A stretch of DNA of 64,000 bases from Candidatus Multivoradales bacterium (GCA_965223155.1 CBDCVR010000013.1:352001-416000); one strand, 5' to 3'. Shown: positions 33,414-59,648, numbered from the stretch's first letter. Translations and numbers: made by a program. The notes: a model not told the origin generated them from the sequence alone.

Positions 33414-35225
33414 CTAGTGGCTTCCCAAGATCCCCCGCTTCGCTCTCTCGACGGCAGTCGCGATTGGAGCGGACGCGACCTCGGCTCGCAGGATTGGGCG
33501 TAGGTGCTCCAGATAGTCGTCCAGGATGGAAGCTTCCAACGAGGCTTCGCGGATGAAGGCCGAGCGCAGGTCGGCGTCACTGAAATCGAAATGCGTCAGG
33601 ATGTCGACGAGGGCGAGGGCGAACTGTGAGGCGGCGTCGTCCCGGGTGCCGAGCCGCCAGGTCCAATCGGTCTCGGCGACGAAGTCGCCGATCAGGGTCA
33701 AGAGCGTCCGGCTGCGCCAGTTGGTGGATCGAAAGCTGCTCAAGAGCTGCTGGTAGCCGTTCTCCACGTTCTGGGAAATGTAGAAGAGCGCCACCGCCGC
33801 CACGAGCTCGTTGCGGAGCAGCGACTCGGCGTCGAGATCGCGCCACCTGTAGTAGTCGTAGGTGGTGGTCTGCCGGTTTCCGCTGCTGTCGAGATAGGAG
33901 AACTGCCTGCGGGTCACGCCCTCCCCCGCCGCGTCCCGCGCTTGGGTCCCGGCTTCGGCCATGTAGAGCCAACCGTTCCCGCTCAGATCGTCGATTCTGC
34001 GGCGCCCGACGCTGGGGGCGAAGTGAAAGCCGACGAAGTTGGCAACACCTTCTTTGAAGACCGCGTGGGAGTCGGGAAGGATCTCCCGAAAGTAGTGGGT
34101 GCCGTCGGGTCCGTAGGCGGGGCCGTAGTGCGCGGTGTCCCAACCCGTTCGATCGAGGGTGTGGACGGTCTCGTGAATCAAGGTCGCGTGCCAGTCGGGG
34201 ACGGTCCGTCCTCCCCCGCTCAGATCCTCGGCGTGGAGCTCACCCAGGACCACCTTGCCCAGCGCGCTCGAACCTCGCCCTTCGCGCCAGGCGCACGGCC
34301 ACACCCCCAGCCGTCCCGTGCCCCGCAATTCGGACCGGCAGAGCCGGTAGTGGTTCCCCGTCGCCTGGGTGAGATCCTGGGTGAAGTCGTTCACCAAGTA
34401 GAACCGCAGCCGGGGCAGACCGCCGATAGTCTGCATCAGGCGGGCGACCTCGGTGCCGACGCGTCCGGCGGTGATCTCTTCATAGGTGCGAATCAGCGTT
34501 GGACAGTCCTGGGCGCAAAGCTCGCGCAGCCGCGCGGCGCTGCCGGCCAGCCCGATGCTTCCCCAGACCCCTTCGGCGGCTCCGGAGGGGGTCGGCAGAC
34601 GGGGATCCACCAGCACGACCTCGATGGGTCCCCGCGCGCCACCGCCCGCAGACTGCGGCGAGGCCAAGGAAGCGATTCGGCTCCGCCAGTCGTCTTCGGA
34701 AAAGGCGGCTCCCGAGGCACCCTCGAGGAAGTAGCGCTCGCCCACGGCCACTGCGCTGGTTCTGGAACCCTCGCCCGTCCGGGACGGAACGACCACCGTT
34801 TGCTCCCCGAGACTCCGGACGCTGTCCCCGAGCAAGCGGCGCAGCTCGGCCGAGAGCGGGCGATCATCGACCAGGAAGACATAGTTGACGCCGGCAAGCG
34901 AGACCCGCTCGGATCCGCCGGGACCACAGGCTCCCGCTCCCAAAGCCTCCCGCGCAAGGGCCAGCCCGGTCAGATCCGCCTCGCAGAACGGGGTGGCGGT
35001 CCGGGTCGCGCCCTCGTCGCAGACCTGCCGCCCGGCCGTCAAGTCTTGGCCGCAGACCGCCGGATACCCAGCCGGAAGGTAGTAGACCGTAGTCGCGGCC
35101 TCGATCGGTGGCGCCGCGACCACGAGCGAGACAGTCACCAAGGCCCGGCCGACGAATCGCCTGGCGGCGGTCTCGGTTCCGCGGGACGTCCTCCTGCCTT
35201 CACGCCTTGCCACGAACGCTCGCAT
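33414..35225 (-). CDS. Secreted cargo-type protein C1: shared Cys4 N-domain + HExxH zinc metalloprotease domain
   Basis: Signal peptide (PIEA), TTVYYLP...C-x10-C-x11-C-x18-C...YVFLVDDR; LIHETVH...FKEGVANF (gluzincin-like third ligand); TGATG coupling to C2. Confidence 0.8.
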   Translation of the reverse strand: MRAFVARREGRRTSRGTETAARRFVGRALVTVSLVVAAPPIEAATTVYYLPAGYPAVCGQDLTAGRQVCDEGATRTATPFCEADLTGLALAREALGAGACGPGGSERVSLAGVNYVFLVDDRPLSAELRRLLGDSVRSLGEQTVVVPSRTGEGSRTSAVAVGERYFLEGASGAAFSEDDWRSRIASLASPQSAGGGARGPIEVVLVDPRLPTPSGAAEGVWGSIGLAGSAARLRELCAQDCPTLIRTYEEITAGRVGTEVARLMQTIGGLPRLRFYLVNDFTQDLTQATGNHYRLCRSELRGTGRLGVWPCAWREGRGSSALGKVVLGELHAEDLSGGGRTVPDWHATLIHETVHTLDRTGWDTAHYGPAYGPDGTHYFREILPDSHAVFKEGVANFVGFHFAPSVGRRRIDDLSGNGWLYMAEAGTQARDAAGEGVTRRQFSYLDSSGNRQTTTYDYYRWRDLDAESLLRNELVAAVALFYISQNVENGYQQLLSSFRSTNWRSRTLLTLIGDFVAETDWTWRLGTRDDAASQFALALVDILTHFDFSDADLRSAFIREASLEASILDDYLEHLRPILRAEVASAPIATAVERAKRGILGSH

Positions 35226-36493
35226 CAGAAGGGTCGCTCGCATGAGCAACCGCGGCAGAAGGGCTCGAACTCCCGGCAGTATCGCTCGTTGAGGTCCTGC
35301 CGCAGGCGGGCTCGGTTCTCCGGGATTCGGAGCATGCGGCGTTGTCCGATCGGCATGTCGCGCCAGCGGCTGAGAGCCGCTTCGCACCCGGCGCGATTCC
35401 TCTCCATGAGCTCCGGAGCGCCACAACCTTGCGGGTGTCGCGGTCGGTAGATGGGCAGGAGCTGATCGTTCAGCCTCGCCGGGCCGGTAAGCCATGTCAT
35501 GGTGACTCCGTAGCCCTCGAGATAGGCCATGTGAAGCATGCCTCGCCGCGCGCCTTCTTCGCCGGTCGCCGGCTCCGGCGGGGTCCCCGCGCCCCGTACC
35601 ATGCCCTCGCCGGTATCCTGGATGACCGGCTCCGGATCGGGTCGCTCCGCGGGAGGCACCCGCTCCTCGTCATCGTCGAAATCCACCGTCTCACCCAGGG
35701 TGAAGCCGAGTCGATCGATCCGGTCGTCGCGATCGGGTTGGCGATACAAGACGCCCCGCAGCGGCACCGTGCCCGCGGACGACTCTCCATGAATGCGGCG
35801 AAGGCTGGCCTCGACCCTGTCGATGAGCTCGCGCATCCGGGCCCTTCCGTCGCTCCGGCACAGCATGATCGGGCACAGGGCGTCTTCGACGGTTCGGCGG
35901 AAGGTCGCGTAGTCCGAGTGGTACGGCACGTCCAGCTCCTCGACATCGACCTCCAGATCCAAGAGGCTGGCGATTCGGGTGAGCCAGGCGGTCCGGTTCG
36001 GCGATCGTTCGCGGTAGAAGCGCTCGCCCACGAAGATGCCCTGGACGCGTGCCGAGGGGCCCGTCCTGGACGGCACCACCATCGGACCGGCGCCCAGGTC
36101 GCGCACCGCGTCGCCCAGCCTGCGAGTGAGCGCCGCCGACAGGGTTCGATCGTCCACCAGGAACACGTATTCGATGCCCGGGATCTGGACTCGCTCCGAC
36201 TCGGCCGGGCAGGCCGGGAGGCCCAAGGCCTCGCGTGCCAGGTCGAGGCCGGTAAGTCCCGAGCGGCAGAAGAACCGGGCACGGTTGGTGACGCCCTCTT
36301 GGCACACCGGGACCCCCCGGGAGATGTCGTAACCGCAGACCTCAGGATAGTTCTGAGGCAGGTAGTACACGGTCGTCGCGACCAGGGGACCCGACGCCCC
36401 AAGTACGGCCAGGCACGCGAAACCGAGCGTCGCGCCTAGCCTTACGGCCCCGCGAAGGGTCCGGGCCGGCAACCGTGAATCAAGATTCGGCAT
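35225..36493 (-). CDS. Secreted cargo-type protein C2: shared Cys4 N-domain + unknown C-terminal domains
   Basis: GGAGG RBS, signal peptide, TTVYYLP...C4...YVFLVDDR...VGERF; Cys-rich C-terminus. Confidence 0.8.
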   Translation of the reverse strand: MPNLDSRLPARTLRGAVRLGATLGFACLAVLGASGPLVATTVYYLPQNYPEVCGYDISRGVPVCQEGVTNRARFFCRSGLTGLDLAREALGLPACPAESERVQIPGIEYVFLVDDRTLSAALTRRLGDAVRDLGAGPMVVPSRTGPSARVQGIFVGERFYRERSPNRTAWLTRIASLLDLEVDVEELDVPYHSDYATFRRTVEDALCPIMLCRSDGRARMRELIDRVEASLRRIHGESSAGTVPLRGVLYRQPDRDDRIDRLGFTLGETVDFDDDEERVPPAERPDPEPVIQDTGEGMVRGAGTPPEPATGEEGARRGMLHMAYLEGYGVTMTWLTGPARLNDQLLPIYRPRHPQGCGAPELMERNRAGCEAALSRWRDMPIGQRRMLRIPENRARLRQDLNERYCREFEPFCRGCSCERPF

Positions 36494-36512
36494 TCTTCCT
36501 CCCTCTCCGTCC

Positions 36513-38111
36513 TTAGTTGAATCCTCGGTCCGCCAGCTTCCAAGCGAGGAGACTCCGGGCCGGTATTCCCGAGATGGCTCGAAAGCGGCGGCGGGCGTCC
36601 TCGTCCTCGGGCTCCGTAAGCACCTGGTGGTTCGGACCCAGCCAGCCGCAGTAGCGGCGGTAGGCTTCCCCGTCCGCGCGCCAGCCGCCTCCCAGAAGCG
36701 GGGACCGGCTGAGCTCGGTGTAGGACGTCACGAAACAGACCCGCTTGCGGACTCCCAAGAGGAATAGGGTGGTCTTGCTCTGCGCGCCCATGTCGCTCAA
36801 GCGGTTGATGCGATCGCCGACGCGCTCGGATTCGCTCGTTGCAAGGGACGCCCGCACCAGGCTGCCCGGAGACTCATCGCGTCGCTCGAACCAGATCTCC
36901 AGGCACCCGCCGGTGCCGTCCTGCATCTGGCAGCTCGCTTCGGCTGCATTCTCAGGCGCGGAGTACTGCGCGTTGATCCAGTCCTCGTAGAGCTCTCGCT
37001 CGAGCTCCAGGGGATGCGGGGCGCGGAAACTCCGGGCCTCTTCGATCTTGGCTCGGATCTCGGTCTCGAATCCCTGGCGCAGGTCCGGCGACAGACGCGC
37101 GTATCGAGTCTGCCACTCGCGAACCAGGTCCTCGCGGCGCAGCAGACCCCGGCGCTGGGCCAGGAACCGGTTGCGCACGTCCTGGATCCACTCCCCCACC
37201 GTGCCCGAGCGGGGACCCGATCCGAAGTGACCGGTAAAGGCTTCGACAACGGGGGCGAACGTCTTGAGGTCCCGGAATTCGATCTTGGGCGCGGTGTAGT
37301 CATCGCCGCTGCCACGCGCCAGGACACTGATCTCGCCCATCGCTGGAAAGCTGCCGATGACCTTGTCCAGCATGAACCGAAACACCGTCTGTCCCAGGAC
37401 CTCCCAGAAGTCCGGGGTGAGCTCGCTCACCGACGCATGCACCATGGTGGACTCGAACTGCTCGAGCGCGCCGTCGTACATCGCCAAGCCGTCGCCCCAG
37501 TTCTGCTCGGTTTGGGAGACATAGCGCTCGATGTACTGGTTGACCTGGGCCGGGATCTCGTCCAGGAGGTGCTGCAGGAATCTGCGCTCGTCGCGAACGA
37601 TACCGACCCGTTCCAGCCACGCCGCCTGGCTGTCCCGGTCGCCGCCGACGCCGAGCTCGAACAGACGCTCGCCCACGGCGATGAAGTCGTAGCGGAACGC
37701 TAGGGCGCCGGCGCGGCCTCGGCTCGGGTAGACGAGCTCCCCCTGGCCCAGGTCCCGCAGGGCATCGCCCATCAGACGGCGCAGCTCCGGCGACGGGGAG
37801 CGGTCATCGACCAGGAAAACGAAGCGCACGCCGGACAGCGAAGCGCTCTGATCGGGCGCGCCGCAACGAGGAAGCCCAAGGGCCTGCTGGGCGAGCTTGA
37901 GACCCGGCACGTCGGCTTCGCAAAACGGCGTCGCCCGGCGGGTGGCCCCATGGATACACCACGGCTCGGAGGCGCTCAAATCCTGCCCACAGACCTCCGG
38001 GAAGCCCTGCGGCAGGTAGTAGATCGTGGTGGCCCGGCCCGGCGTAGCGGCCCCTGCCGCGAGAAGCACCAGCAACCCAGCGGCGATCTTGAATCGGGAG
38101 TTTCGGAGCAT
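36513..38111 (-). CDS. Secreted cargo-type protein C3: shared Cys4 N-domain + largely helical unknown C-domain
   Basis: Signal peptide (PGRA), TTIYYLP...C4...FVFLVDDR...VGERL. Confidence 0.8.
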   Translation of the reverse strand: MLRNSRFKIAAGLLVLLAAGAATPGRATTIYYLPQGFPEVCGQDLSASEPWCIHGATRRATPFCEADVPGLKLAQQALGLPRCGAPDQSASLSGVRFVFLVDDRSPSPELRRLMGDALRDLGQGELVYPSRGRAGALAFRYDFIAVGERLFELGVGGDRDSQAAWLERVGIVRDERRFLQHLLDEIPAQVNQYIERYVSQTEQNWGDGLAMYDGALEQFESTMVHASVSELTPDFWEVLGQTVFRFMLDKVIGSFPAMGEISVLARGSGDDYTAPKIEFRDLKTFAPVVEAFTGHFGSGPRSGTVGEWIQDVRNRFLAQRRGLLRREDLVREWQTRYARLSPDLRQGFETEIRAKIEEARSFRAPHPLELERELYEDWINAQYSAPENAAEASCQMQDGTGGCLEIWFERRDESPGSLVRASLATSESERVGDRINRLSDMGAQSKTTLFLLGVRKRVCFVTSYTELSRSPLLGGGWRADGEAYRRYCGWLGPNHQVLTEPEDEDARRRFRAISGIPARSLLAWKLADRGFN

Positions 38112-38113
38112 TT

Positions 38114-39535
38114 CTAGTCGTCCCCGTCCTGGTCCTCGGTGGTCATGGCCTCGGGATTCTCGAGATCGACTTCCCCGAGAAGCTCGAAGTGGTTCCCGCT
38201 CTTGAGCCAGCGCCAGCTCCACCAGGCCATGGCTCCGTCGGTGATCGGTGTCTCGGCGATGAGCTGGCGCATCTCCGCCTCGGTCTTCGCCCGGGCGTCG
38301 CTACACCGCCGGTTCTCGGCACAGGTGACCGGCGCACAGTGATGAGCGCCCGAAATCGGCACGACCGGGAAGTGCGTGTCCTCGCTCCAGCGCCGCACGG
38401 AGTCCGGTGGATACGCGGCAGGCGCGGTGTCGCATCGATCGTAGATCTGAGGCAGGCCGTAGTCGGCATCGATGAAGGCGGCCAAGGGAATCTGCGGGCG
38501 GCCCAGCGAGGTGACTCCAACCGAGAGGTTGCGGGGCTCGGCGAGCTCGCGAGCCGCCGTCATCAGGGCTTCCGATCGAGCCCGGTTGCGGCTGAAGTGG
38601 GCCTCGGGATCCAGAATGATCCCCGTGGCGTCGAGATGGAGCGCGCCTTCCACCAGCTCCTCGACCTGGCGGCGAATGGCGTTGCCATGCTCGGGAGCAC
38701 CGCGCCACGCGAAGATGTCGATCTCGGCCGCATGCAGGGCTTCGAGGTAGGGGCCGAGCGCTTCGATCTGATCCTCGGTCAGCGGCACATAGGTATCGCG
38801 GGGATGGTAGTGCGTGGGCCAGGCGACCCACTGGATTCCGGCCTCCCGGAGACGGGTCACGAAGTCACTCGGACTCCCGAGGAAGGCGAAGGAAGGCTCC
38901 TCACCCGCCTCGACCGCCGCCAGCACCGCCCGTGCCTCGACCCCCGTGATCGTGCGCTGGAAGAAGATCCCCTTGCCCCGGGGAATCCCAAGGCGCCAGA
39001 GATGCGCCCAGTTGGCGGCGTTGCGCACCTCGTCGATCCACGCGGCATCGGAAGGAGCCAGCGCCGCGGCGGCCTCCCCCACGACCAGCGCCCGGACCGC
39101 GTGGCCATCCACCGTGCGGGACGGAGACACAAGACGCCGGCCATCCCGGTCGCGAACGGAATCTCCCAGGAGCTCCAGCAATTCAGGGGTCGGATCCCGG
39201 TCGTCGACCAGAAACACGTAGTCGAAACCCGGCAATTCGTTGCGGCGCTCGACGCCGTCGCAGAGCTCGAGCTCCAGAGCCTCGGCCGCCGCGCGCAGCC
39301 CCGGCACGTCCTGCTCGCAGAAGGGCTCGGCCTCGGCGGTGACTCCGTCAGGGCAGGACGCCCCAGCTCCGGGCAGCTCCTGCGCGCAAGTCGATGGAAA
39401 CTCTTTGGGTACAAAGAAGATGCGAGTCCGGGCGGCCGCGGTGCCGGCCCCTCCCAGGAGGAGGAGTGTCGCCAGGGCGGCGAGGGCCCGCCTACCCGGA
39501 GAGGCTCGTCGTGGGCGAAGACTAGGAGCCTTCAT
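38114..39535 (-). CDS. Secreted cargo-type protein C4: shared Cys4 N-domain + glycoside hydrolase-like TIM barrel
   Basis: Signal peptide (TAAA), TRIFFVP...C4...YVFLVDDR; GKGIF, GIQWV, GIILDPE, VGVTS, LPQIY, AWWSW pattern of (beta/alpha)8 glycosidases. Confidence 0.75.
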   Translation of the reverse strand: MKAPSLRPRRASPGRRALAALATLLLLGGAGTAAARTRIFFVPKEFPSTCAQELPGAGASCPDGVTAEAEPFCEQDVPGLRAAAEALELELCDGVERRNELPGFDYVFLVDDRDPTPELLELLGDSVRDRDGRRLVSPSRTVDGHAVRALVVGEAAAALAPSDAAWIDEVRNAANWAHLWRLGIPRGKGIFFQRTITGVEARAVLAAVEAGEEPSFAFLGSPSDFVTRLREAGIQWVAWPTHYHPRDTYVPLTEDQIEALGPYLEALHAAEIDIFAWRGAPEHGNAIRRQVEELVEGALHLDATGIILDPEAHFSRNRARSEALMTAARELAEPRNLSVGVTSLGRPQIPLAAFIDADYGLPQIYDRCDTAPAAYPPDSVRRWSEDTHFPVVPISGAHHCAPVTCAENRRCSDARAKTEAEMRQLIAETPITDGAMAWWSWRWLKSGNHFELLGEVDLENPEAMTTEDQDGDD

Positions 39536-40592
39536 CGTCGTAGATGGCTATCGATTCCACGGAGCCCCCCTCGGTGTTCCGCATGACCGTGACGGGAACG
39601 TAGGTCTCCTCGCCGTTGCCGACGCCGGCGTCCGAGAGCTCGCCGTGGAGTCGCCTCAGGCCGTCGCTCCGACGGGCCGCGGAGTACGCGGCCGAACGCT
39701 CGATGCCGCCGATCTCGCTGGCGAGCGCTCGTCCGACCGCATCGCGCCACCGAACGAAGCTTCGATGAAACGGCACTGGCACCTCGCGTTCCTCGAACGT
39801 GAAGCTGGAAGCCTCGGGGCTCGGTGTCGGGGTCGTCAGGCCCTCGCCGGTCTCGGTCGGTGCCTCCCGTCGCCGGTCTCCGTCACCTCCTCCCCGGCCA
39901 GGGCTAGGCACAGACAACCCACCGGCGCCCTCCGCCGGCCTCTCCGCAGAGCCGCCTCCGGCCGCAGGGGTCGAATCGCCGTCGCCGCGGTTCTCGGGCA
40001 AGGCGCCAGGACCAACGACCCGGCCCAGCTCGCCCCCCTGCGTCAACAGGCCGCGGATCCGTTCTTGCCAGGCCGAAGTCGGAATCGCACCGCCCCCTTG
40101 CCCTCCGACGCGGGACATCTGCTCCCCGACCACGAGAGTGCGCCTGGATCGGCTGAGGGTATCGGTGAAGACCCGAAACGAGGGCTCGATCATGCGCCGG
40201 CCACCCTGGGAAACGAGCGTCGGACCGAGGGCTTCCAGAAGCGCTGAGGAAGGATTCGAGTCGTCCACGAGAAGGACCAACTCGACGGTCGATTCCGCGA
40301 GAGAGACCAGAAACGGATTGGGCATGCTGTTGCCCTGACAGTCTCGAAGTCCCAAGGCACTGCGCGCCGAATCGAGACCGGAGAGGCCGAGACGGCAGAA
40401 CGCCTCGACTTGACCGGTCACCCCATCGGGACATCGCGCCCGATCCTCGGTGAGAGACCAGGCGCAGACGGCTGGAAACCGCCCGGGCACGAAGATCACG
40501 TCCACGCCGGCGACCGCCGGCAGCGGGGCGAAGACGCCCGCCAAGCCCAAGAGGCTCGCGATCACGAGCTTCCGAAGGCCGGTCCTACTCAA
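39522..40592 (-). CDS. Secreted cargo-type protein C5: shared Cys4 N-domain, Gly-rich linker, short C-domain
   Basis: TTG start overlapping P1 stop, signal peptide (PAVA), VIFVP...C4...LVLLVDD...VGE. Confidence 0.75.
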   Translation of the reverse strand: MSRTGLRKLVIASLLGLAGVFAPLPAVAGVDVIFVPGRFPAVCAWSLTEDRARCPDGVTGQVEAFCRLGLSGLDSARSALGLRDCQGNSMPNPFLVSLAESTVELVLLVDDSNPSSALLEALGPTLVSQGGRRMIEPSFRVFTDTLSRSRRTLVVGEQMSRVGGQGGGAIPTSAWQERIRGLLTQGGELGRVVGPGALPENRGDGDSTPAAGGGSAERPAEGAGGLSVPSPGRGGGDGDRRREAPTETGEGLTTPTPSPEASSFTFEEREVPVPFHRSFVRWRDAVGRALASEIGGIERSAAYSAARRSDGLRRLHGELSDAGVGNGEETYVPVTVMRNTEGGSVESIAIYDDEGS

Positions 40593-42801
40593 CCGGTGTC
40601 CCCATCGACACGTTGTCCACCACGACCATGTCGGTCAGCCCGCCCCGTAACCGGTCTGTCTTGACCTGGGTGTTGTCATCCAACGTCCAGACGATCTCGT
40701 ACTCGAATTCGGGGCGCTCATCCGCCGGATGGGCGTACTTGACCATCTCGGAAAACCTCGGCACCTCGGCGAACTCGCTCAGCTCGACTCGTTCGATTCG
40801 CTGTTTGCCGAAGAGATCGAAGTAGAGGGTGATGGTCGTCGAGATCACGTTCTGGCTGTCGAGACGGTCGGACCGGGCCAGGAGGCGCAGATTGCGGTAG
40901 CCATGAGGCGGCGACAGCGCCAGGCTGGAGTCGGACGATGTCTGCCGCCCGGAGCGCCATTCGGCGCCGCCGAAGAGGCTCCACACGACTTCGTAGTCGT
41001 ACGCGAGCCATTCGTCGCCACGATCCCCCTGAAGCATGGGATAGACCAGGAGCTTGCGCACGCCCTGCTCCAAGCGCCGGAACTGGTCGCGATCGAAGCG
41101 CGTGGTGCGGACGGTCGTCTCGCCGTTGCGGTGCCTCTTGGTGAGGGTCAACTCGACGTGATTCACGAACTGGCCGAAATCCGAGGCATCCAGGCCGTCC
41201 AGGGTGACCACCACCCGGCGCTCGCGCATGGCGGGGTCGTCCCAGTTGACCACCAGGTAGTGATCCGGGTCGTTGAACAACCGGCGCAGGCCGCCCATCG
41301 GGAAGTCGAAGGGCAGGTTCTGGGTGTCGTAGGTGGCCTTCTTCCAGTTGAAGTTGAACTCGCCCGAGCGCTGGTACTCCTTTTGCCGGTACGCGGCGAG
41401 CAAGGAAAACGTGGGCTCTTCCTGGATGTTGGCCGGCGTCGCCTCGCGGCCGCCGCCCCCCTGGCCGGGACGGGTGCCGGACTGGCCGGCGCCGCTTCCC
41501 GAAGAGCCTTCCGGGGTCGCTCCGGGCGTCTGTCCCCTGGTACCTCCCTCGCCTGTTTCGCCGCCTCCCGCGGCAGCCGTCGAGCCATCCGCGGTTCGGG
41601 TCCCGGACTCGCTTCCTTCTCCACTGCCGGCCCCGGCGCCGGCGGTCGCCGTCTCCGAGCTGGAGCTGCCCTGCCCGAGCGGCAGGTGGTCCAGGATGGG
41701 CAGATGGGTGACCGTCGGATCGGTGTCCGTCCGAAGCGCCCGCTCCCGGGCGATCTCTTCCCGCTCCTGGCGCTCCCGCTCTCTCTCCCGCTCGTTGGCG
41801 CGGCGGACCCGCTCCTGCTCCTCCCGCTGAAAGCGGCTGGCGCGATCGAAGTTGCTGTAGAGATTCTGGTCCGGCTGGAGGGTCGCTACGAGCTGCGGAT
41901 CGCTGTCCACCTCGAACAGCATGCGCACGACGTGCCCCTCCGCGGTTCGGATGGCCTCCTGAAGGTTCTCGCACTCTCCCTTCTGCTCGAAGGTATACGC
42001 CTTGTCGGATTCCAGCCGGCTGACGACGCGCTGTACGTCGACACCCAGGATCGGGGTCCTGAGGCCGGCCGCCATGGCCTCGTTGGCCGCGATGTTCTCG
42101 AAGCTACCGGAAAGCTCGGCGTCGCACGGGCTCCGCAGACCGACCATGTTCATGTCGAATTTGACGGCGAGCTGCCCCGAAGCCTGGCGCAGAGACTCGC
42201 GCATGATGGTCGCGCCCTCGCCGGTGAGACGGAGGTTGATGGCGGTTCGGTGTCCCTCCATGACGGGAGCCTTGCCGCCGCCGACGATCTTGGTGATGAA
42301 CTCCCCTTCGTCGTTCTGGAGGCCGGAGGAGACGAAGACCTGCCCCGACTCGTAGGTGATCGCGCCGGCCACCCGGGCGCCGGGGACCTGGCGGCGGAGC
42401 TCCTGCTCGGCCTGGCGCAAGGTCTCGTCGTCCACGTTGAACTCGACGGCGAAGGACACGAAGCCCTCGGCCACGGAGCGGCCCGTGCCGCCTTCGACGA
42501 AGTCCGGCTGCTCTCCGCTCGGCGTGTTCTTGACGAAAATCAGGAAGCTGAAGATCGGCTTGCCGTTGCGCATCGCGAGGCGCGGCTTGTCGGGCAGGTA
42601 GTAGAAGGTCGTGGGCTCCTTGTACTTGGGATAGAAGCGCAAGCCGCCGGCGTCGATGCCCTCGTCGAGCATCACGTCCCGCGAAGCACCCGCGGGCAGC
42701 GCCGTAAGGAGCAGCACGAGGCAGCATGCGGTCAAGGTGAGGAACCGGTGGGTTGCGGTCATTGACTCGATCGCGCGGTCGGCGGGTTTCATTGGTTGCA
42801 T
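40585..42801 (-). CDS. Secreted paralogue P1 of unnamed YYLPxxPRL family
   Basis: AAAGGAG RBS, signal peptide, TFYYLPDKPRL...GKPIFSF, GKAPVMEG, two YxYxVxW beta-sandwiches; ER-rich/Gly-rich insertion. Confidence 0.85.
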   Translation of the reverse strand: MQPMKPADRAIESMTATHRFLTLTACCLVLLLTALPAGASRDVMLDEGIDAGGLRFYPKYKEPTTFYYLPDKPRLAMRNGKPIFSFLIFVKNTPSGEQPDFVEGGTGRSVAEGFVSFAVEFNVDDETLRQAEQELRRQVPGARVAGAITYESGQVFVSSGLQNDEGEFITKIVGGGKAPVMEGHRTAINLRLTGEGATIMRESLRQASGQLAVKFDMNMVGLRSPCDAELSGSFENIAANEAMAAGLRTPILGVDVQRVVSRLESDKAYTFEQKGECENLQEAIRTAEGHVVRMLFEVDSDPQLVATLQPDQNLYSNFDRASRFQREEQERVRRANERERERERQEREEIARERALRTDTDPTVTHLPILDHLPLGQGSSSSETATAGAGAGSGEGSESGTRTADGSTAAAGGGETGEGGTRGQTPGATPEGSSGSGAGQSGTRPGQGGGGREATPANIQEEPTFSLLAAYRQKEYQRSGEFNFNWKKATYDTQNLPFDFPMGGLRRLFNDPDHYLVVNWDDPAMRERRVVVTLDGLDASDFGQFVNHVELTLTKRHRNGETTVRTTRFDRDQFRRLEQGVRKLLVYPMLQGDRGDEWLAYDYEVVWSLFGGAEWRSGRQTSSDSSLALSPPHGYRNLRLLARSDRLDSQNVISTTITLYFDLFGKQRIERVELSEFAEVPRFSEMVKYAHPADERPEFEYEIVWTLDDNTQVKTDRLRGGLTDMVVVDNVSMGTPVE

Positions 42802-42844
42802 GGAGATCTCCTTTCGGTGTCTCTCGGGTCGGTGTCTCGCGGGA

Positions 42845-44986
42845 TTAGTTGGTGCCATCGTCACTGCCGTCGAAGAGGTCGCGCACCGCATCCACGCGCT
42901 CGCCCAGCTCCCTGGCGAAGCCGTCCGGAAGGCCCGAAACGCTGGCGTAGGCGAAATCGCCTTCCAGCAGGCGCCAGGGACTCGCGGGGAGCTGGCCCTC
43001 TTCCTTGTGGGTAAAGACAAGGCTGTAGTGGACGGGCGTTCGTTCGGGATCTCCCTTGTCTACGAACAGCCGGGTCTCGACATAGGGAGCGGGGCGAGCG
43101 ACTCGAAATTTCACGGTCTCGATCTCTTCCTTGCCGTACCGGGAATGGCGCAGCAGGACGTCCACGGCTCGGATTCCGAGTCGCTCGAACTCGTCCAGGT
43201 CGGCCTCGACCTCCACGTCCCGCGCCTCGATGGGCGGAACGAGGGTGATGTTCATCTCCCTCGTGCAGTTCTCTTCGGTGTCGGGCGGCCACTTGCCGCC
43301 ACCCCGCAAGCTCCAGGACTGCGAATACCGGATCGGGCAGCGGGCGTTGAGCTCCTGGCCGCCGGTGGCGAAGGTGAAGGTCTCGACGACGTCGCCGGTC
43401 TCGACCGTGGCACGGTCGAAGACCTTGTCGCGCCGGTTGGCCCCGGCGTAGCCGGGAGTGACCTGGACGGCCACGTTGTTGACCATCCCCGCCTCGAACA
43501 GATCGAGTGCGTCGGCGTCGAGATCCACGACGACCCGGCCGCGGCGAAAGAAGGGATCGTTCAACAGCACCGTGCTGAAGACCTCGTCTTCGTGATCGCG
43601 CAGCTGGGCGCCCAGGTTCCCCGTCATGGTGTGGCTCCGGTAGACGGCCATCGACTTGGTTACCTTGAAGGCGATCTGTCCGGACATACTCTCCCGCTTC
43701 TTGCGAATCGTCAGAATCTCGTAGCTGGTATTCGCGGGCCGCTCATCCTCGTCGTCTTCGTCGTCGCCACTGGTGTCGATGTCTTCGGCGCCCGGCATCG
43801 AAAACGAGCGCTGAATCTCCATGAAGCTCTCCATCGCCTGATCCATCAAGGCTTGCTCGATGAAGGAAACGTCCACGTCCGGGAGGTTCTGGTCGATGGT
43901 GATGGTCACTGCTCCGGTGGTGCGCAAGACGTCATAGGTGTGCTCGTACTGCTCGCGCGAGATGCGGTCGATGGACTCCGACTCGGTGTAGTACGGGATG
44001 ATGATGAAGCCCCAGGACTTCTTGGTGCTCCGGGTAACGGTCTGCGCGTCGTACGAGCACTCGGCGAGCTTGCGCACCCGGTCGAGGTTGATCCGAACCT
44101 CGGCGTTGAAGGCGCGGGTCTTGGCGATGTAGTCGTAAGCGAAGGTCACCGAGAGATCCGAGGTCGCGTTTTCGAAGGTTGACGCGAGCAACTCGGCGCC
44201 GATGGGCGACAGCCGTCCGGCGAGGGCGGCCTTGCCTCCCGGGTAGGTCGGCGCCTTGCCCGACTTCAAGACTCCCGCGGGTGTGAACGAGGTGTCGCTC
44301 AGCGTCCCGGAGGTGACGACGAAGTTCTCTCCCGTCGCCGCCGGCGTCAGCTCCACCATGCCCCGCAGCCGAGCTCCAGGTACCGCCTCCTCCAGGGTGG
44401 TCCGGAGCTCCGCTTCCTCATCCCGGGTCAGGCCGTAGCTCATCATCATGTGAAAGATGCCGCCGGCCGCGGAGTCTGGGCCCTCTTCCTCGTCGGTAAT
44501 GAACTTGACGAAGGTGGCCTCGGGCCTCTCGTCTGCGTACGACAGCTTGGGCTCGGTCGGCAGGTAGTACCAGTCCGAGGGCTTGGGCGCGGCAGAAAAG
44601 ACACCGCCCACGGCCACCACTGCCCGCAGCTTGGGGACGGAGCGCAGCCAGGCCGGCCGCTGGGCCGGCGCCACGGGCCGCATCTGGGCCTGCTGGCGAT
44701 GATCCCGCACCCGGCCGATGCGCTCGTCGTAGCGGCGCTCCAGCTCGTCGCAGGAGGCGTCCTCGGCCTGCGCCGGCAGGTCCGGCGGCTGGGCCCAACG
44801 GGGATGGAGATTGTCGGTCGTCGTGTCTTCGGCGCTCGGAAACACTCGGACCGTCGTGCCATTGCTGAGCACGAAGTCCATGTGCATGCCGAGCTGGACC
44901 GCGGCATTAGCCGGCGCGACCGACAACGCTCCGAGCATGAGCGGGACGATGAGAAGTAAGGCCAGAAAGGTCGGGGCGGATCGCAT
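42845..44986 (-). CDS. Secreted paralogue P2 of unnamed YYLPxxPRL family
   Basis: GGAGG RBS, signal peptide (ANA), WYYLPTEPKL...GGIFHM..YGLT, GKAPTYPGG. Confidence 0.85.
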   Translation of the reverse strand: MRSAPTFLALLLIVPLMLGALSVAPANAAVQLGMHMDFVLSNGTTVRVFPSAEDTTTDNLHPRWAQPPDLPAQAEDASCDELERRYDERIGRVRDHRQQAQMRPVAPAQRPAWLRSVPKLRAVVAVGGVFSAAPKPSDWYYLPTEPKLSYADERPEATFVKFITDEEEGPDSAAGGIFHMMMSYGLTRDEEAELRTTLEEAVPGARLRGMVELTPAATGENFVVTSGTLSDTSFTPAGVLKSGKAPTYPGGKAALAGRLSPIGAELLASTFENATSDLSVTFAYDYIAKTRAFNAEVRINLDRVRKLAECSYDAQTVTRSTKKSWGFIIIPYYTESESIDRISREQYEHTYDVLRTTGAVTITIDQNLPDVDVSFIEQALMDQAMESFMEIQRSFSMPGAEDIDTSGDDEDDEDERPANTSYEILTIRKKRESMSGQIAFKVTKSMAVYRSHTMTGNLGAQLRDHEDEVFSTVLLNDPFFRRGRVVVDLDADALDLFEAGMVNNVAVQVTPGYAGANRRDKVFDRATVETGDVVETFTFATGGQELNARCPIRYSQSWSLRGGGKWPPDTEENCTREMNITLVPPIEARDVEVEADLDEFERLGIRAVDVLLRHSRYGKEEIETVKFRVARPAPYVETRLFVDKGDPERTPVHYSLVFTHKEEGQLPASPWRLLEGDFAYASVSGLPDGFARELGERVDAVRDLFDGSDDGTN

Positions 44987-45037
44987 CGGAGTCCTCCAGA
45001 TCGATAAGAACGAATCGGTTCGAAAAAATGACGTCAC

Positions 45038-46846
45038 TTACGAAACCTCGGGAAGCCGGTCGCAGAAGATCGTGCCCGGCTGAGCGGTGCGGCGTTCGAG
45101 ACGCACCCGCGAATCGTCTTCGAGGGTCCAGACGATTTCGTACTCGATGGTCGTCGGGTCGCTGGTGTCCACGGGAACCGGAATCGGAGTCGCCGCCCGC
45201 AGCAGCCCCTCTTCGGGGACGAGCTCCAAACGCTCGCGCCGCTTGCGGCCGAAGAAGTCGTACCAGAGAGTGATCGAAACCAGCCGAACTCCCGCCTCCT
45301 CCAACCGCTCGGCCGAGGCACGAAAGGTCACGTCTTCAAACTCGAACGGGGGTACCAGCGAGTGCGCGCGGTCGGTCGATTCGATCGGTCCGTCCGTCTT
45401 CTTCGCGCCGCCCAAGAAGGACCAGCTCACGCTGTAGCGATAGCGCTCGAAGTCCATGAGGTCGGTCTCACGGTCCCAGGAGTAGGTCACGGTCTTGGGC
45501 TCGCCGCTCGACAGTTCCTGGCCGTGAAAGAGGACTTCGCGAACCGACTCCGTCCCGGAACCGTGCAGCTTGCGCAGTTCGACGGCGACGCTGGTGACGA
45601 ACCGCCGGTAGGCTTCCTCCCAGAGTCCGTCCAGCGAGAACACGATCTCCTTGACTCGAAACTCCGGGTCGTCGGCGCGGGCGGTGCGGAAGATGCGGGG
45701 ATCTTCGGCGTACTCCTTGTACAGGCTGCCGATATTGCCGCTCAAGACGGCGGTGACCTGGTCGCTCGCCGCCTCGTTGAAGTTCACCGTGTACTCGCCC
45801 TCCCGAGCGATCTCTCTTTGCTTGAAGCCGCCCTCGAGGCTCAGGTACCAGGGGGCCTGCTGGTGGCCGGCGCCGGCGGCCATGGGCAGCAGCGAGGTGG
45901 CAAGATCGTCCAGGTTCGGAGTGTCCTCGGCGAAGACGTCCAGCGGCACCGGCTCGAAGACCTTCTTTTGCAGGATCTCGAACGTCCTCTCGTAGAGCGG
46001 CTGCATGCTCTCGAGGGTCCCCTTGCCCGAACAGTCGATAGCACCGGTCTCGCGCGCCTTGTCCCAGAAGTTTTCGTAGTCGAATCCCAGATTGATCGGC
46101 CCGTAGCCGAACTTGAAGCCAACCTCGGCTTCCACGTGCTCGTGAAACTTGTCCCAGAAGACCGAGCAACTGGCTTCGACGGGATCCCGGATCCCCGCGT
46201 AGGTGAGCTGAAAGACCATGGCGATGTCCGGCGCCGCCATGCCGAACGAATTCCTCAGGATGGTGGCGCCCTCCTTGGTGAGGTGGAGCGAGACCGCGGC
46301 CTTGTGCCCGGGCAGAAGCGGCGCCCGTCCGGTGCCGACGACCGCGTGGGAGAGCTTCCGGGTGTCGGCAGGCGGCTCGTCTTCGGGCAAGAAGGACGAG
46401 ACCAGAGCGAAGGAGCCCTCTCGAAATTGCACCGGGCCCGCCAGCACCGCGTCCTCGACGTCGTCACGCAGGGCGGCCTCGGCGGCCTCGACGTCTTCGG
46501 GCTCGGTCCCGAACTCGACCAGGAAGTGCACGATGCCGCCGCCTCCCGCTTGGGTCACGCCGCCTTCGGAGGCGACCGCCGACAGATCCCGGTAGGTCAG
46601 GAAGGAGAACTCGGGCAAACCATCCGGCCGGCGGGCCAGCCGTGGCTCGGCCGGCAGGTAGTAGAAGACCGTGCGTTCGGAAAACAGGGGCAGGCAGACG
46701 AGCGGTCCGCAGGTTCGAGCGTGGTCGAGCGCGAGCTGCTGTGCACGTGCCGGACGACTTCCGGACGCAAGAAGCCACGCCGCGCCGAGGGCCAGCGCCA
46801 GGAGGCACCCTGGAGACAGCCTGGGAAGTGATCCTCGCCGCCTCAC
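45038..46846 (-). CDS. Secreted paralogue P3 of unnamed YYLPxxPRL family
   Basis: GTGA overlap, signal peptide (ARA), FYYLPAEPRL..DGLPEFSF, GGGIVHF, GRAPLLPG. Confidence 0.85.
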   Translation of the reverse strand: MRRRGSLPRLSPGCLLALALGAAWLLASGSRPARAQQLALDHARTCGPLVCLPLFSERTVFYYLPAEPRLARRPDGLPEFSFLTYRDLSAVASEGGVTQAGGGGIVHFLVEFGTEPEDVEAAEAALRDDVEDAVLAGPVQFREGSFALVSSFLPEDEPPADTRKLSHAVVGTGRAPLLPGHKAAVSLHLTKEGATILRNSFGMAAPDIAMVFQLTYAGIRDPVEASCSVFWDKFHEHVEAEVGFKFGYGPINLGFDYENFWDKARETGAIDCSGKGTLESMQPLYERTFEILQKKVFEPVPLDVFAEDTPNLDDLATSLLPMAAGAGHQQAPWYLSLEGGFKQREIAREGEYTVNFNEAASDQVTAVLSGNIGSLYKEYAEDPRIFRTARADDPEFRVKEIVFSLDGLWEEAYRRFVTSVAVELRKLHGSGTESVREVLFHGQELSSGEPKTVTYSWDRETDLMDFERYRYSVSWSFLGGAKKTDGPIESTDRAHSLVPPFEFEDVTFRASAERLEEAGVRLVSITLWYDFFGRKRRERLELVPEEGLLRAATPIPVPVDTSDPTTIEYEIVWTLEDDSRVRLERRTAQPGTIFCDRLPEVS

Positions 46847-48744
46847 CGAGACTCCTCCACCTCGTCCGCCGCCGGTTTCAACTCGGGTTCGGGCTCAGGC
46901 TCGGGCTCCGCGGTCGGCGGTCCCGCCAGGACTACGCTCAACTCCGTGTCCTCGACCTCCGTCCAGTCGCTCGAGACATTCCGGTTGCCGTCCTGCATCC
47001 AGCGAATGCGGTAGCGAACCGGGGAGCGCTCGTCCCGGATGAAGTTGGTCTCCATGTAGTTTTCGGTCTCGCCCGGGCGGAAGCTCTTGTTCAGGAACTT
47101 GCGTCGTCCCATCAAGCGATATTCGACCGACAGCGACACTCGGCGGACTTCTTCTTCGATGAGCGAAGACTCATCCAGCTCGATGAACACCGAGACCTTG
47201 TCCTTCGGCGGCGCCAGGTCCAGGATGCCCCGGCGCGAAGGGGCGAAATCCTCGGGATCTTCGGACGGGAACGACACCGTTTGGCCTCCGCGGAAGCTCC
47301 AGATGACTCGGTACTCGTAGCTGCTGGCGTCAAGGCCCTGGAGCCCGAGCTTGGGATAGCTCAGGGTCTTCGAAAAGGTTCCGCTCTTGACCTCGTCGCG
47401 TCCGAAACGGGCCTCCCCGACGAAATCCGGTTGCTCGAGTCCCGGATAGGACTTCTTGATCTCCACCGAGGCGGAGTTGATGACCGACGAGAAGGCGTCG
47501 TAGAAGTCCGGGTCCACCTGAAACAGGATCTCCCGCCTCAAGAACTTCGAAGCTTGCGGCGACACGATCTTGAACAGCCGCTCGTCGTCTCCCCAGACCT
47601 CGAAGAAGCCGCGCATGTTCCCTGCGGTATTGAACGGCACCTGAATCGTGGTGTTCTCGGTGAAGCTCAGCGAGAACGTTCCCCGGCGGATGTCTTCGCG
47701 GCGGCGCAGGGTGTACTGGTCCTCGGTCACGAACTTGGGATTCTCGTTGCCGCCAAAGGTCTTCTGAAACCAGCTTCGCTCGGCCCGCTGCGCGACCACG
47801 TCCTCCGGAACCTTCTCCTGTTCCGGGAGCTGCGATAGCCCCTGAGTCGTGTCGAAGAGCATGTCCACGAGCTTGGTCGTGACGAGATCCATCAGGCCCC
47901 CGAGAGTCGAAGTGCCCGCGACTCCAGCGCGGCTCGTGACCGAGACGTCGATTACCCCATTGCGCTGCAGTTCGTCCATATGGTCGCGAAGCTCGCGCTT
48001 GGAATAGTTCGCCTGACGGTTCTGGACGGCAAAGAAGTGCTCGTAGACGGTGCTCAGATCGGCGAACACCCTTCCTTGGTAGCTCGGAAGAGCCGCTTCG
48101 TAGTAGGCCGTGATCGCGACCGAGATGTCCGACGTAGGGGACTTGAGGGTCGCGTCCAAGAGAGTCGTGGACTCCGGACTCAAGAGCGCCGACACCGCGG
48201 CCAGCGAACCGGGAGTCACCGGCGCCACACCGGAAGTGACCATCTGGGACCGGAAGCCCGCCACCGCACCTTCGGCGCCGGGCGCGCCGGAGCCCGAGGT
48301 CAGGGTCGAAGAGGTCACCATGAACGAGGGCTTGGGCCCTTCATAGCCCTCTTCTTCCTTCTTCACCAGGAGCGGAACCGGACCTCGGAGGCGAGCTCCG
48401 GGAACCTCCTCGTCCAGCCTCCGCTGGAGCTCTTCGATGACGTCCTCGGGCAACTGGAGGGTGAAGAGAAAGTGCAAGAGGCCGCCGCTCACGGCCTGGG
48501 TCTCGCCGACGTAGGTGACGAACGTCATCTGGGGCAGGCCGTCCTCGTGGGTCGAAACCCGCGGATACGGCGGAATGTAGAAGTAGCTCGACGGGTCGTC
48601 CTTGTCGCGCAGCAAGGTGATGCCGTTGAGGGTCAGGCGGCCCTCCTCGTAGAGAACGACTCCTTCCGCCGCCGCCGGAACCAGGAGCGCGCCGATCAGA
48701 ACGGCGCACCGGCAAGCTTGCGTGAACCAACTGCTTCGCTTCAT
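46843..48744 (-). CDS. Secreted paralogue P4 of unnamed YYLPxxPRL family
   Basis: Signal peptide (AEG), YFYIPPYPRV..DGLPQMTF, GGLLHF, GVAPVTPG; PE-repeat tail. Confidence 0.85.
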   Translation of the reverse strand: MKRSSWFTQACRCAVLIGALLVPAAAEGVVLYEEGRLTLNGITLLRDKDDPSSYFYIPPYPRVSTHEDGLPQMTFVTYVGETQAVSGGLLHFLFTLQLPEDVIEELQRRLDEEVPGARLRGPVPLLVKKEEEGYEGPKPSFMVTSSTLTSGSGAPGAEGAVAGFRSQMVTSGVAPVTPGSLAAVSALLSPESTTLLDATLKSPTSDISVAITAYYEAALPSYQGRVFADLSTVYEHFFAVQNRQANYSKRELRDHMDELQRNGVIDVSVTSRAGVAGTSTLGGLMDLVTTKLVDMLFDTTQGLSQLPEQEKVPEDVVAQRAERSWFQKTFGGNENPKFVTEDQYTLRRREDIRRGTFSLSFTENTTIQVPFNTAGNMRGFFEVWGDDERLFKIVSPQASKFLRREILFQVDPDFYDAFSSVINSASVEIKKSYPGLEQPDFVGEARFGRDEVKSGTFSKTLSYPKLGLQGLDASSYEYRVIWSFRGGQTVSFPSEDPEDFAPSRRGILDLAPPKDKVSVFIELDESSLIEEEVRRVSLSVEYRLMGRRKFLNKSFRPGETENYMETNFIRDERSPVRYRIRWMQDGNRNVSSDWTEVEDTELSVVLAGPPTAEPEPEPEPELKPAADEVEESR

Positions 48745-48793
48745 AGGGAACTTCCTCTTCCTAGATCTAGTGGATTGACGTCGGGCGATACCG

Positions 48794-50710: not shown

Positions 50711-50731
50711 TTTGTGCACCTTGGCCGCACT

Positions 50732-53769: not shown

Positions 53770-54545
53770 CCTTCCTCTTCTTGCGCCAGGATCCGGAGCA
53801 CGGCTGGTGCGCTCCGCCGGCCCTCCGCGTCCTCCACGATCACGTCCCGCACTCCAGGATTCGGGGCGAAGCCGCGGTCCAACTCGACCTCGACCAGCTC
53901 TTGGTCGATGAAGTACACCGGAAACTCGCGAAGCCCGTAGTCCGGCAACCGCGAAGTCCCGGCATGGAGATTCGCCAGAATCCAAACCTTCGAACTCTCC
54001 GAAAAGCCTTCTCCGAAGACCTCGAGGAGAAGCGCTCGGCCGGCCGGAATCGCAGCCGGCCGGATTTCCCGGATCGCCGGGCCTCCCGCGGCCGCGGTGT
54101 CAGGCTGGGTCTCCTCATCCCAGTTCCCGCCCGAGATCTCTTCCTCAGCCGGCACTGTCTCCTCCGCCCCGTCCCGGACCTCTCCGATGGTCAGAGTAAG
54201 CGCGAGTGAGCGCTCGCCGCTTGCCGCCTCGACCAGGATGGCGCGCTCCCTAGGTACTGGCGGCAGGCCCAACGGAAACTCGACAACCAGCCTCTCCGCG
54301 GAGCGTTCCGCGGGCGTCCGGCGAAGGTACCTGCCAGCCTGGCCGGCCTCGACCAAGATCACGGTGGAGCCGTCGAAGCCCGCACCGTTCAGGACCAGAG
54401 AGAAGGCCGTCCGCGCCGGAACGCTCGCGGGCTCGAGCGAAGCGAGTTCCGGACGAGCGGATTCAGTCTCAGAGCCGGAGCCGGTACCGGCGCCGGACGT
54501 CGCCACAGAAATCAGGACCGCGAGGACAAGAGCCAGTTGGCGCAT
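53766..54545 (-). CDS. Secreted protein with two IPT/TIG-like Ig domains
   Basis: Signal peptide; 2x P.(L/I)..(L/I).PA..PA.......GxGF....(V/I) with a conserved RxILVE/RDVIVE strand. Confidence 0.75.
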   Translation of the reverse strand: MRQLALVLAVLISVATSGAGTGSGSETESARPELASLEPASVPARTAFSLVLNGAGFDGSTVILVEAGQAGRYLRRTPAERSAERLVVEFPLGLPPVPRERAILVEAASGERSLALTLTIGEVRDGAEETVPAEEEISGGNWDEETQPDTAAAGGPAIREIRPAAIPAGRALLLEVFGEGFSESSKVWILANLHAGTSRLPDYGLREFPVYFIDQELVEVELDRGFAPNPGVRDVIVEDAEGRRSAPAVLRILAQEEEG

Positions 54546-54551
54546 CGGTTT

Positions 54552-59642: not shown

Positions 59643-59648
59643 GCCTCG

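Follow-up and report, generated by a model that had tools for sequence, protein, structure and literature searches.

A rare N-terminal domain joined to unrelated C-terminal parts in five tandem, putatively exported proteins of Candidatus Multivoradales: a possible docking adaptor

Background

The principle of one tag serving many cargoes is already known. Dockerins of cellulosomal enzymes bind the cohesins of scaffoldin, and the SLH domains, like the CWB2 domains of the Cwp family of Clostridioides difficile, are anchoring modules shared by paralogues that differ in their functional domains (amidases, proteases). In the lethal factor (LF) of anthrax, as in its edema factor (EF), a common N-terminal domain docks unrelated enzymatic parts on a shared partner, according to the account of these toxins in PMC7012834. 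Here we describe a domain that may work on the same principle. It lies in a stretch of 64,000 nucleotides (nt) from Candidatus Multivoradales bacterium (GCA_965223155.1, CBDCVR010000013.1:352001-416000), hereafter called the window, in which five adjacent open reading frames (ORFs) on the minus strand fill positions 33414-40592. An original prediction, made from the sequence alone, held that the five proteins (P1 to P5) share a novel N-terminal domain of about 130 residues, that their C-termini are unrelated, and that the common domain (the N-domain) would be a disulfide-stabilised targeting or loading tag. We find that the N-domain is common to the five proteins, that it defines a very rare family with no match to a known one, and that it is joined to many different C-terminal parts. 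We tentatively propose that it is a docking adaptor, whose partner would probably be an assembly of the paralogous proteins (U1 to U6) encoded just upstream.

The likeness to dockerins lies in the organisation: one small conserved module is carried by many unrelated catalytic or binding domains, several genes for such proteins lie side by side, tag and cargo have had different histories, and conserved acidic residues could bind a metal. However, there is no relation in sequence (Pfam finds no Dockerin_1 in any N-domain), the N-domain is of another build (about 140 residues, alpha/beta, apparently braced by disulfides and usually N-terminal), and no cohesin-like partner was identified. One member of the family, P0021, bears a true Dockerin_1 at its C-terminus besides the N-domain.

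The comparison with the anthrax factors is weaker. Residues 65-176 of the edema factor structure 1xfv_A, which we take to be the domain that binds the protective antigen (PA), align with a predicted model of the N-domain at Z 3.8 (root-mean-square deviation, rmsd, 4.2 Å over 86 aligned residues, 7% identity), far below significance, and the lethal factor chains 1pwv_A and 1j7n_A give Foldseek E-values of 1.3-1.5 with TM 0.23-0.24. No similarity in sequence to LF or EF was found, no PA-like protein was recognised (among the upstream proteins U1 to U9, Pfam recognises DUF5648 only, and the model of U3 weakly resembles chains of the adhesin or FN3 type), and there is no sign of translocation or of action on a host. 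With SLH and CWB2 the N-domain would share the role of a common address label for extracytoplasmic enzymes; it differs from them in having no Pfam match, in being carried by proteins with Gram-negative-type Sec signal peptides, and in being extremely rare whereas SLH and CWB2 are widespread. Finally, a hydrophobic strand ending in Asp-Asp (VFLVDD) recalls strand 1 of receiver domains, at scores of the noise level: the only NCBIfam row for P1 to P5 is the EpsW response regulator (E 0.0097, 15.5 bits against a cut-off of 200, a chance-level match), and receiver structures reach only Z 2.3-2.5 against the model. Unlike receivers, the N-domain would be exported and disulfide-bonded, has an extra N-terminal three-stranded region and lacks a phospho-acceptor context.

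Results

Each of the five proteins starts with a putative Sec signal peptide (as read by eye, a basic n-region and a hydrophobic stretch, then a site of small residues directly ahead of the N-domain), followed by the N-domain and by a C-terminal part of its own:

39522-40592, minus strand: P1, a 356-residue ORF with signal peptide, N-domain (nt 40041-40505), Gly/Ser/Pro-rich linker and a conserved C-terminal domain of about 110 residues
38114-39535, minus strand: P2, 473 residues, with signal peptide, N-domain (nt 39011-39427) and a C-terminal part of about 300 residues without family
36513-38111, minus strand: P3, 532 residues, with signal peptide, N-domain (nt 37590-38030) and a "P3-type" C-terminal domain of about 360 residues
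35225-36493, minus strand: P4, 422 residues, with signal peptide, N-domain (nt 35957-36376) and a Cys-rich "P4-type" C-terminal domain of about 245 residues
33414-35225, minus strand: P5, 603 residues, with signal peptide, N-domain (nt 34659-35093) and a C-terminal part of about 415 residues containing HETVH and EGVA

The maximal ORFs of P3 and P5 are longer (36513-38222 and 33414-35495); their likely starts are internal, with Met codons at 38111 and 35225, in agreement with the database gene calls P0001 (532 residues, beginning MLRNS) and P0002 (603 residues, beginning MRAFV).

In a full-length alignment P1 to P5 can be aligned over their first 180 residues or so only. Pairwise BLASTP E-values run from 4.6e-13 to 1.0e-41, with matches confined to the first 130-180 residues approximately (241 for P3/P4). 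The alignment of the N-domains, now delimited at about 140 residues, has 28 invariant columns over 144 model positions. Among them are the four cysteines C14, C25, C37 and C56, with the exact spacing C-x10-C-x11-C-x18-C, as well as P7, P11, G28, T30, F36, G43-L44, V77.L79-V80-D81-D82, P108-S109, V126-G127-E128 and W146. Every motif listed in the original prediction is found in this alignment (the YYLP-type strand, FC, GL..A..AL, VFLVDD, PS, VGE and W). The DNA of the copies is only 65-80% alike, and this over short stretches, which indicates old paralogues, apparently held alike by selection, rather than a recent repeat.

The predicted invariance of the cysteine spacing stands for P1 to P5 and their close relatives but fails for the family as a whole. 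Four cysteines are kept by 24 of the 46 aligned members (CCCC), 20 have only the last two (--CC), one has only the first two (CC--), and one, P0006, is C-CC, a Cys being present a few residues further on. In the numbering of this 46-row alignment, L44, L73 and D76 are found in 46/46 members, C37, C56 and D75 in 45/46, G120 and E121 in 44/46 and P7 in 43/46; D75, D76 and E121 are therefore kept in 44-46 of the 46 members, down to about 22% identity. The invariant core of the family is made of the third and fourth cysteines (C3, C4), the LVDD motif and VGE. In the predicted model, C1 and C2 lie on adjacent strands of a hairpin and C3 and C4 flank the first helix; since the cysteines are gained or lost in pairs, the disulfides would be C1-C2 and C3-C4. 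The disulfide stabilisation that had been predicted is thus supported indirectly, by this presence or absence in pairs and by the putative signal peptides, which mark all the proteins as exported. The central strand VFLVD-D ends in two Asp and the Glu follows the other long hydrophobic strand, so that in the model D75, D76 and E121 may come together as one acidic site where the sheet has its C-terminal edge.

The family is very rare. A profile of the N-domain, searched against 1.84 billion cluster representatives, retrieved 51 proteins at E <= 0.001 (25 at E <= 1e-10 and 6 at E <= 1e-30), including three proteins of the window and one false match, P0042. We rejected this last protein (3401 residues) as a member, its only matching part being a short "FIVDD" stretch within Ig repeats. 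The N-domain was detected in 0/60 relatives, 0/400 genomes of a phylum sample and 0/400 genomes of a class sample (the samples overlap), and searches with alignments of tagged proteins, i.e. of those bearing the N-domain, found no relatives in collections of genome, metagenome or viral contigs. A tblastn search of plasmids with the N-domain of P3 gave no match, and when the five full proteins were submitted to a word-index search, nothing came back except the proteins of the window itself and a single short ENA contig. A sixth N-domain match in the genome itself, on contig C8 (9,572 bases), is not an independent copy, because C8 is a variant contig 98.2% identical to window positions 40269-49836. 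One end of C8 falls within the N-domain of P1, and this contig is presumably a strain variant retained in the assembly. Elsewhere in the assembly, outside the window, an element of about 1.38 kb is present in many copies of 99.7-100% identity on contigs C2, C7, C11, C13, C14 and C15; it is probably an insertion sequence and explains several small contigs.

Over 51 rows (46 database members plus P1 to P5) the N-domain begins 0-84 residues from the N-terminus, and in nearly all members it is an autonomous module right behind the signal peptide, as the prediction had it for the five. In P0045 and P0049 it is C-terminal (about residues 335-481), behind a part with CxxCH motifs of the haem-binding type. 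The C-terminal parts fused to it were catalogued from the homologues found by the profile. In 47 members the protein continues for at least 60 residues past the domain, and BLAST sorts these into 21 clusters: TPR-type (12 members), P1-type (8), P3-type (4), P4-type (4), tyrosinase-type (3) and 16 singletons, P2 and P5 included. The P1 domain recurs in P0004, P0053 and P0008, the P3-type domain in P0007, P0048 and P0050, and the P4-type domain in P0003, P0032 and P0036. Pfam recognises TPR, Tyrosinase, Amidase_2 and Dockerin_1 as partners of the N-domain, most C-terminal parts being without family. The claim that unrelated C-termini follow the common domain is therefore borne out in the window and extends to the homologues, in which the C-termini vary and are not of one constant type.

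The labels that had been put on individual C-terminal parts (an HExxH protease, a TIM barrel) fared less well. The HExxH motif of P5 is present, as HETVH at residues 351-355 (nt 34161-34175), with EGVA 37 residues past the second His, but Pfam gives no backing: at a limit of E 5, the five C-terminal parts yielded only chance rows, for P5 (Pentapeptide, E 0.046; HYR_4C, E 0.28). Those of P2 and P5 have no match among PDB sequences. An atlas search with the C-terminal part of P5 gave weak leads with scores under 0.9, and that of P2 has, in our own reading of the sequence, an alternating strand/helix pattern. We keep "TIM barrel" and "protease" as leads.

The AlphaFold2 model of the N-domain, built from the 46-row alignment, has a predicted local distance difference test (pLDDT) score of 93.0 and a predicted TM-score (pTM) of 0.89; it is a compact alpha/beta structure with eight strands and four helices. 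P1 to P5 match no family in Pfam, PHROGs or PADLOC, and an origin from a phage or from a defence system was rejected on the two latter results. When the five N-domains alone were compared with Pfam at E <= 10, a single chance row appeared (sCache_3_2, E 0.16, in one of the five). The N-domain profile reaches E 0.03 at best among PDB sequences, with no match to LF or EF, and Foldseek finds no match of the model in the PDB at E <= 0.001. The best of 48,161 chains in VIA-align is deuterolysin 1eb6 (Z 4.1, rmsd 3.1 Å, 79 residues aligned), and all rows lie below the Z of about 8 that the guidance for this program gives for a meaningful match. Small zincin-like proteins are found among these weak rows at Z 2.4-3.6 (3e11 at Z 3.6, 2ejq at Z 3.3, YbeY 1xm5 at Z 2.9), together with receiver- or flavodoxin-like structures at Z 2.3-3.2. 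The zincin-like resemblance of the model is a lead only, the scores being too weak for kinship; none of the five N-domains has an HExxH motif, and at the point where the central strand gives way to a helix the sequence is VGE(R/Q/A), with no His. In Pfam, NCBIfam, PHROGs, PADLOC and the PDB sequences, the N-domain thus has no counterpart among known families of catalytic or carbohydrate-binding domains, in line with the novelty claimed for it, and the predicted fold is probably new. The domain, its probable fold and the 14-gene system described below are absent from every library searched, while literature searches cannot find domains by sequence.

The history of the tag was then compared with that of the cargo in a maximum-likelihood tree of 46 N-domains. 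All window proteins except P5 pair with an orthologue that carries the same C-domain (P1/P0004 with support 100/98, P2/P0006 98/94, P3/P0007 99/96 and P4/P0003 97/93). Deeper in the tree, a starred split (97/88) places P0048 and P0050, which are P3-type, and P0032 and P0036, which are P4-type, in a separate clade of 11 rows with tyrosinase-type members. The C-domains are homologous across this split (P4 versus P0036, E 5e-19; P3 versus P0048, E 5e-7), but a single clade for the four P4-type N-domains is rejected at a cost of 33.1 log-likelihood units (p-AU 0.014, in the approximately unbiased, AU, test), and so is a single clade for the four P3-type ones (74.0 units, p-AU 2.75e-5). Inside each clade, tags on different cargoes are mutual nearest kin. 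Such a conflict between tag and cargo trees implies concerted evolution or repeated re-tagging, which are expected for a module that fits one shared partner and not for a domain that co-evolves with its own C-terminus. The conflict fits a tag that would evolve independently of its cargo.

P1 to P5 are the last five genes of a 14-gene, 22.8-kb run on the minus strand, from 56243 to 33414, in which the gaps are short or negative throughout. The nine upstream genes are the following:

40585-43020, minus strand: U1, ORF, secreted paralogue
42845-45037, minus strand: U2, ORF, secreted paralogue
45038-46846, minus strand: U3, ORF, secreted paralogue
46843-48744, minus strand: U4, ORF, secreted paralogue
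48794-50719, minus strand: U5, ORF, secreted paralogue
50732-51835, minus strand: U6, ORF, secreted paralogue
51832-56243, minus strand: U7, U8 and U9, the first genes of the same operon

The junctions U1/P1/P2/P3/P4/P5 measure -8, -14, +2, +19 and -1 nt. The start of P1 overlaps the stop of U1 by 8 nt, the ATG of P2 lies 14 nt inside the end of P1, P3 starts 2 nt past the stop of P2, the 19-nt spacer before the ATG of P4 holds a purine-rich run resembling a Shine-Dalgarno sequence, and the start of P5 overlaps the stop of P4 by 1 nt. Judging from this layout, P1 to P5 appear to be translationally coupled to one another and to U1.

U1 to U6 are mutual paralogues by BLASTP, each with an (F/Y)YYLP..P motif near the N-terminus, and the genome has no other copies of them except on the variant contig C8. 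They match no family in Pfam, NCBIfam, PHROGs or PADLOC, and their profile finds only chance-level Ig rows in the PDB. The model of U3 (602 residues, pLDDT 81.9, pTM 0.51) is a chain of beta-sandwich domains with weak structural matches to adhesins, complement MG domains and FN3 modules, its N-terminal half being barely covered by the whole-model search. An origin of the N-domain from the N-terminus of a U protein was considered, since both open with a YYLP strand, and rejected: hhalign aligns 8 columns, with a probability of 1.5%.

U7 (51832-53985) contains DUF5648 repeats (Pfam E 2.3e-5, 25.1 bits for a cut-off of 25) and a C-terminal part. DUF5648 is presented in bioRxiv 10.1101/2025.01.06.631476 as a propeller of three blades that binds glycans and serves as a receptor-binding domain. 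After the repeats, a stretch VYYYQPKRW... of U7 resembles the YYYLP motif of the U paralogues, and the C-terminal 450 residues of this protein are conserved next to arrays in other genomes. U8 carries choice-of-anchor Z repeats (NCBIfam CoaZ_rpt_PGGG, E 1.8e-10), and U9 (563 residues) has repeats with paired Cys and no family match. No recognisable ATPase, secretin, transporter or secretion-system family is encoded in the operon (Pfam, NCBIfam), and nothing suggests that a pore, or a device delivering cargo into another cell, is built from the U proteins; the sole U model, that of U3, consists of adhesin-like beta-sandwiches. No protein of the 14-gene system has an assigned function.

Directly upstream of the operon and on the same strand (window 57429-60989, minus) are genes for a FIST/NosP-like sensor and for a PAS-GGDEF-EAL protein, neighbours that hint at a control of the operon linked to cyclic di-GMP. 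Between them and U9 lies a 1.2-kb stretch in which Rfam finds nothing. Scans of this leader for a riboswitch or another RNA gave nothing above noise, and those for promoter or terminator signals bounding the operon remained at chance level.

Arrays of the U type (loci L020, L022 and L030-L044) were found in 4/400 other genomes of the phylum sample and in 12/400 genomes of the class sample (about 3%). The order U8-U7-U6-U4-U3-U5-U1-like is kept in seven loci of other genomes (genome G048 has no U8 match); U7 and U8 are conserved beside arrays elsewhere, and U9 was not found at those loci. In G048 the array is followed by an Amidase_2 protein (E 7e-19), then by a homologue of the P3 C-domain (E 2.5e-32 over P3 residues 186-511), then by a CCP_MauG-like protein, none of them tagged. 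Untagged TPR proteins (Pfam) lie downstream of the arrays in G522 and G663, with BLASTP homologues following the arrays in G599 and G733, and one of those in G522 is 56% identical over 132 residues to the C-terminal part of the tagged protein P0043. A more distant array, in G396, has U homologues without signal peptides and a tyrosinase gene inside the array. Since P3-type, TPR, amidase and tyrosinase proteins all occur untagged beside U arrays, the kinds of module that are tagged are the kinds that accompany these arrays. Closer links between individual proteins were rejected in three cases: the tagged amidase P0025 and that of G048 have only the Pfam family in common (BLASTP E 0.18), the tyrosinases of the tagged P0044 and of the G396 array do not form a special subfamily (28% identity over 184 residues, within the generic tyrosinase core), and the haem-motif part of P0045 is not akin to the CCP_MauG-like protein of G048 (BLASTP E 0.13).

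The Amidase_2 and P3-type proteins of G048 (L044:5446-7892, on G048:C42, minus strand) share an acidic motif, WD(I/L)FE...ET.GEV, just past their signal peptides. This motif is present in no other ORF of the seven loci, and may correspond to the N-domain in a short, linear form. Distant U-like arrays were also seen in other members of the phylum, at L023 (G396:C161) and L025 (G423:C14), and at L029 (plasmid NZ_CP119567.1, 808479-839186); their proteins start at MLYL.PP..., have no signal peptide and are presumably cytoplasmic. The plasmid, from Pararhizobium qamdonense, carries an eight-gene U-like run in which every product is annotated as hypothetical protein.

For the database members, the size of the longest source contig, together with the sources, can serve as a proxy for linkage. 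Equal sizes pair homologues of U3 with tagged proteins in two cases, P0061/P0032 (69,285) and P0072/P0024 (15,715), and group tagged proteins with one another in six (P0010 with P0011, P0004 with P0007, P0008 with P0015 and P0020, P0009 with P0022, P0012 with P0026, and P0013 with P0029). By a rough estimate, well under one such coincidence is expected by chance; this is a proxy and not sequence evidence.

Discussion

We think that the best explanation of these observations is that the N-domain is a docking adaptor by which accessory modules of different kinds reach one partner common to them, probably the U assembly, and we give this explanation a probability of about 0.4. P1 to P5 would then be Sec-exported accessory proteins of a conserved multi-protein secreted system encoded in the same operon (U9 to U1). 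Their N-domain would be an autonomous alpha/beta module braced by C1-C2 across a beta-hairpin and by C3-C4 clamping the first helix, and the five different C-terminal modules would be brought by it to one partner, most probably the assembly of U paralogues. The acidic cluster (both Asp of LVDD and the Glu of VGE) is probably part of the surface that makes the contact, possibly via a bound metal ion. We infer the binding to the upstream U proteins from links that are genomic: the common operon, the coincidences of contig size, the untagged modules of the same kinds beside other arrays, and the conflict between the tag and cargo trees.

Several points weaken this argument. The N-domain is absent from all 12 other U-bearing genomes of the class sample, so that the U system works without it; this absence is uncertain for G222, whose contig breaks off within the last U gene, the assembly lacking the remainder, and for G288, where the contig ends about 600 nt past the array. 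Outside the present genome, the co-occurrence of tag and U genes rests on coincidences of contig size, not on sequence, and the groups submitted to the AU test were chosen after the tree had been seen. In addition, three of the nine most conserved positions of the domain are acidic and stand at strand ends, an arrangement that suits a catalytic site or a metal site no less than an interface. Finally, the beta-sandwiches in the model of U3 are adhesin-like, and the model gives no hint of a receptor site.

If the docking adaptor is accepted, one can imagine a larger picture, which we consider doubtful. The operon would be an unrecognised extracellular machine, with a scaffold of six to seven beta-sandwich paralogues, a DUF5648 lectin (U7) that aims it at a glycan, and up to five enzymes plugged in through an N-domain adaptor matched to the scaffold of each lineage. 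This would be a Gram-negative loading system, cellulosome-like or AB-toxin-like but made from new parts, and sister lineages would recruit the same enzymes in another way.

The alternative that survives best, although we consider it unlikely, is that the N-domain anchors different enzymes at the cell surface, as SLH and CWB2 do, by holding on to some envelope or matrix component other than a protein (for instance peptidoglycan, a polysaccharide or a polymer loaded with metal), without direct contact with the U proteins. The fused partners are indeed of kinds usual at the surface or in the wall, enzymes as well as binders (Amidase_2, Tyrosinase, TPR, Dockerin_1), the acidic cluster is invariant, U systems lacking the N-domain exist in the class sample as said above, and the operon holds in U7 a DUF5648 protein, glycan-binding if the role described for this domain in the bioRxiv text applies. 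A general envelope anchor should nevertheless be widespread, which is difficult to reconcile with a domain found in none of the sampled genomes and in only 51 representative clusters; in this genome it was seen in the U operon only, and it has no similarity to any known carbohydrate- or wall-binding family.

It is quite improbable, in our opinion, that the N-domain has a catalytic or metal-dependent activity of its own (for example as a small hydrolase, or as a module for maturation or regulation, working through the Asp-Asp...Glu cluster), with C-termini that would provide substrate specificity. The conservation of D75, D76 and E121, at the ends of two central hydrophobic strands in the model, i.e. 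at the usual place of an alpha/beta active site, would agree with such a role, as would the enrichment of zincin-like hydrolases (deuterolysin, 3e11, 2ejq, YbeY) among the weak top structural matches. However, these matches all fall below the meaningful level (Z 4.1 at best, and none in Foldseek at E <= 0.001), the domain has neither HExxH nor another known catalytic motif, several C-termini are already enzymes (Tyrosinase, Amidase_2), and the same C-modules occur elsewhere without the N-domain.

We regard as very unlikely the idea that N-domains bind one another to build a hetero-oligomeric multi-enzyme particle of the five proteins, independent of the U proteins. It would account for the fact that two to five tagged proteins are encoded together wherever the contig data permit a count, and for N-domains of different C-types being nearest relatives within both clades, but the domain modelled as a monomer is already compact, and the confidence is high (pTM 0.89). 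Hardly probable at all is a sorting or export signal, read by a machinery encoded elsewhere that would take the proteins from the periplasm across the outer membrane. In nearly all members the N-domain comes straight after the Sec signal peptide, and the operon lacks a recognisable ATPase, secretin or transporter, both of which are compatible with it; on the other side, two members have the N-domain at the C-terminus, the modelled domain is no linear signal but a globule, folded and disulfide-bonded, and no candidate machinery was identified. As for a polymorphic toxin with an N-terminal trafficking domain, we rejected it as unlikely, because junctions of -14, +2, +19 and -1 nt leave no room for immunity ORFs among the P genes, the operon has no secretion apparatus, and the C-types, each with orthologues in other organisms, do not look like strain-specific replacements.

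Conclusions

In the most modest reading, the N-domain is a well-delimited new domain family, probably with a new fold, and merits inclusion in the databases. It also offers a first way into a secreted system of 14 genes lacking functional assignments. If the docking adaptor proves to be true, the domain would serve as a tag that can be transferred and whose structure is predicted with confidence, and it would reveal a new protein-protein or protein-ligand recognition pair, by which an oxidase, an amidase, a putative protease and repeat proteins are naturally attached.

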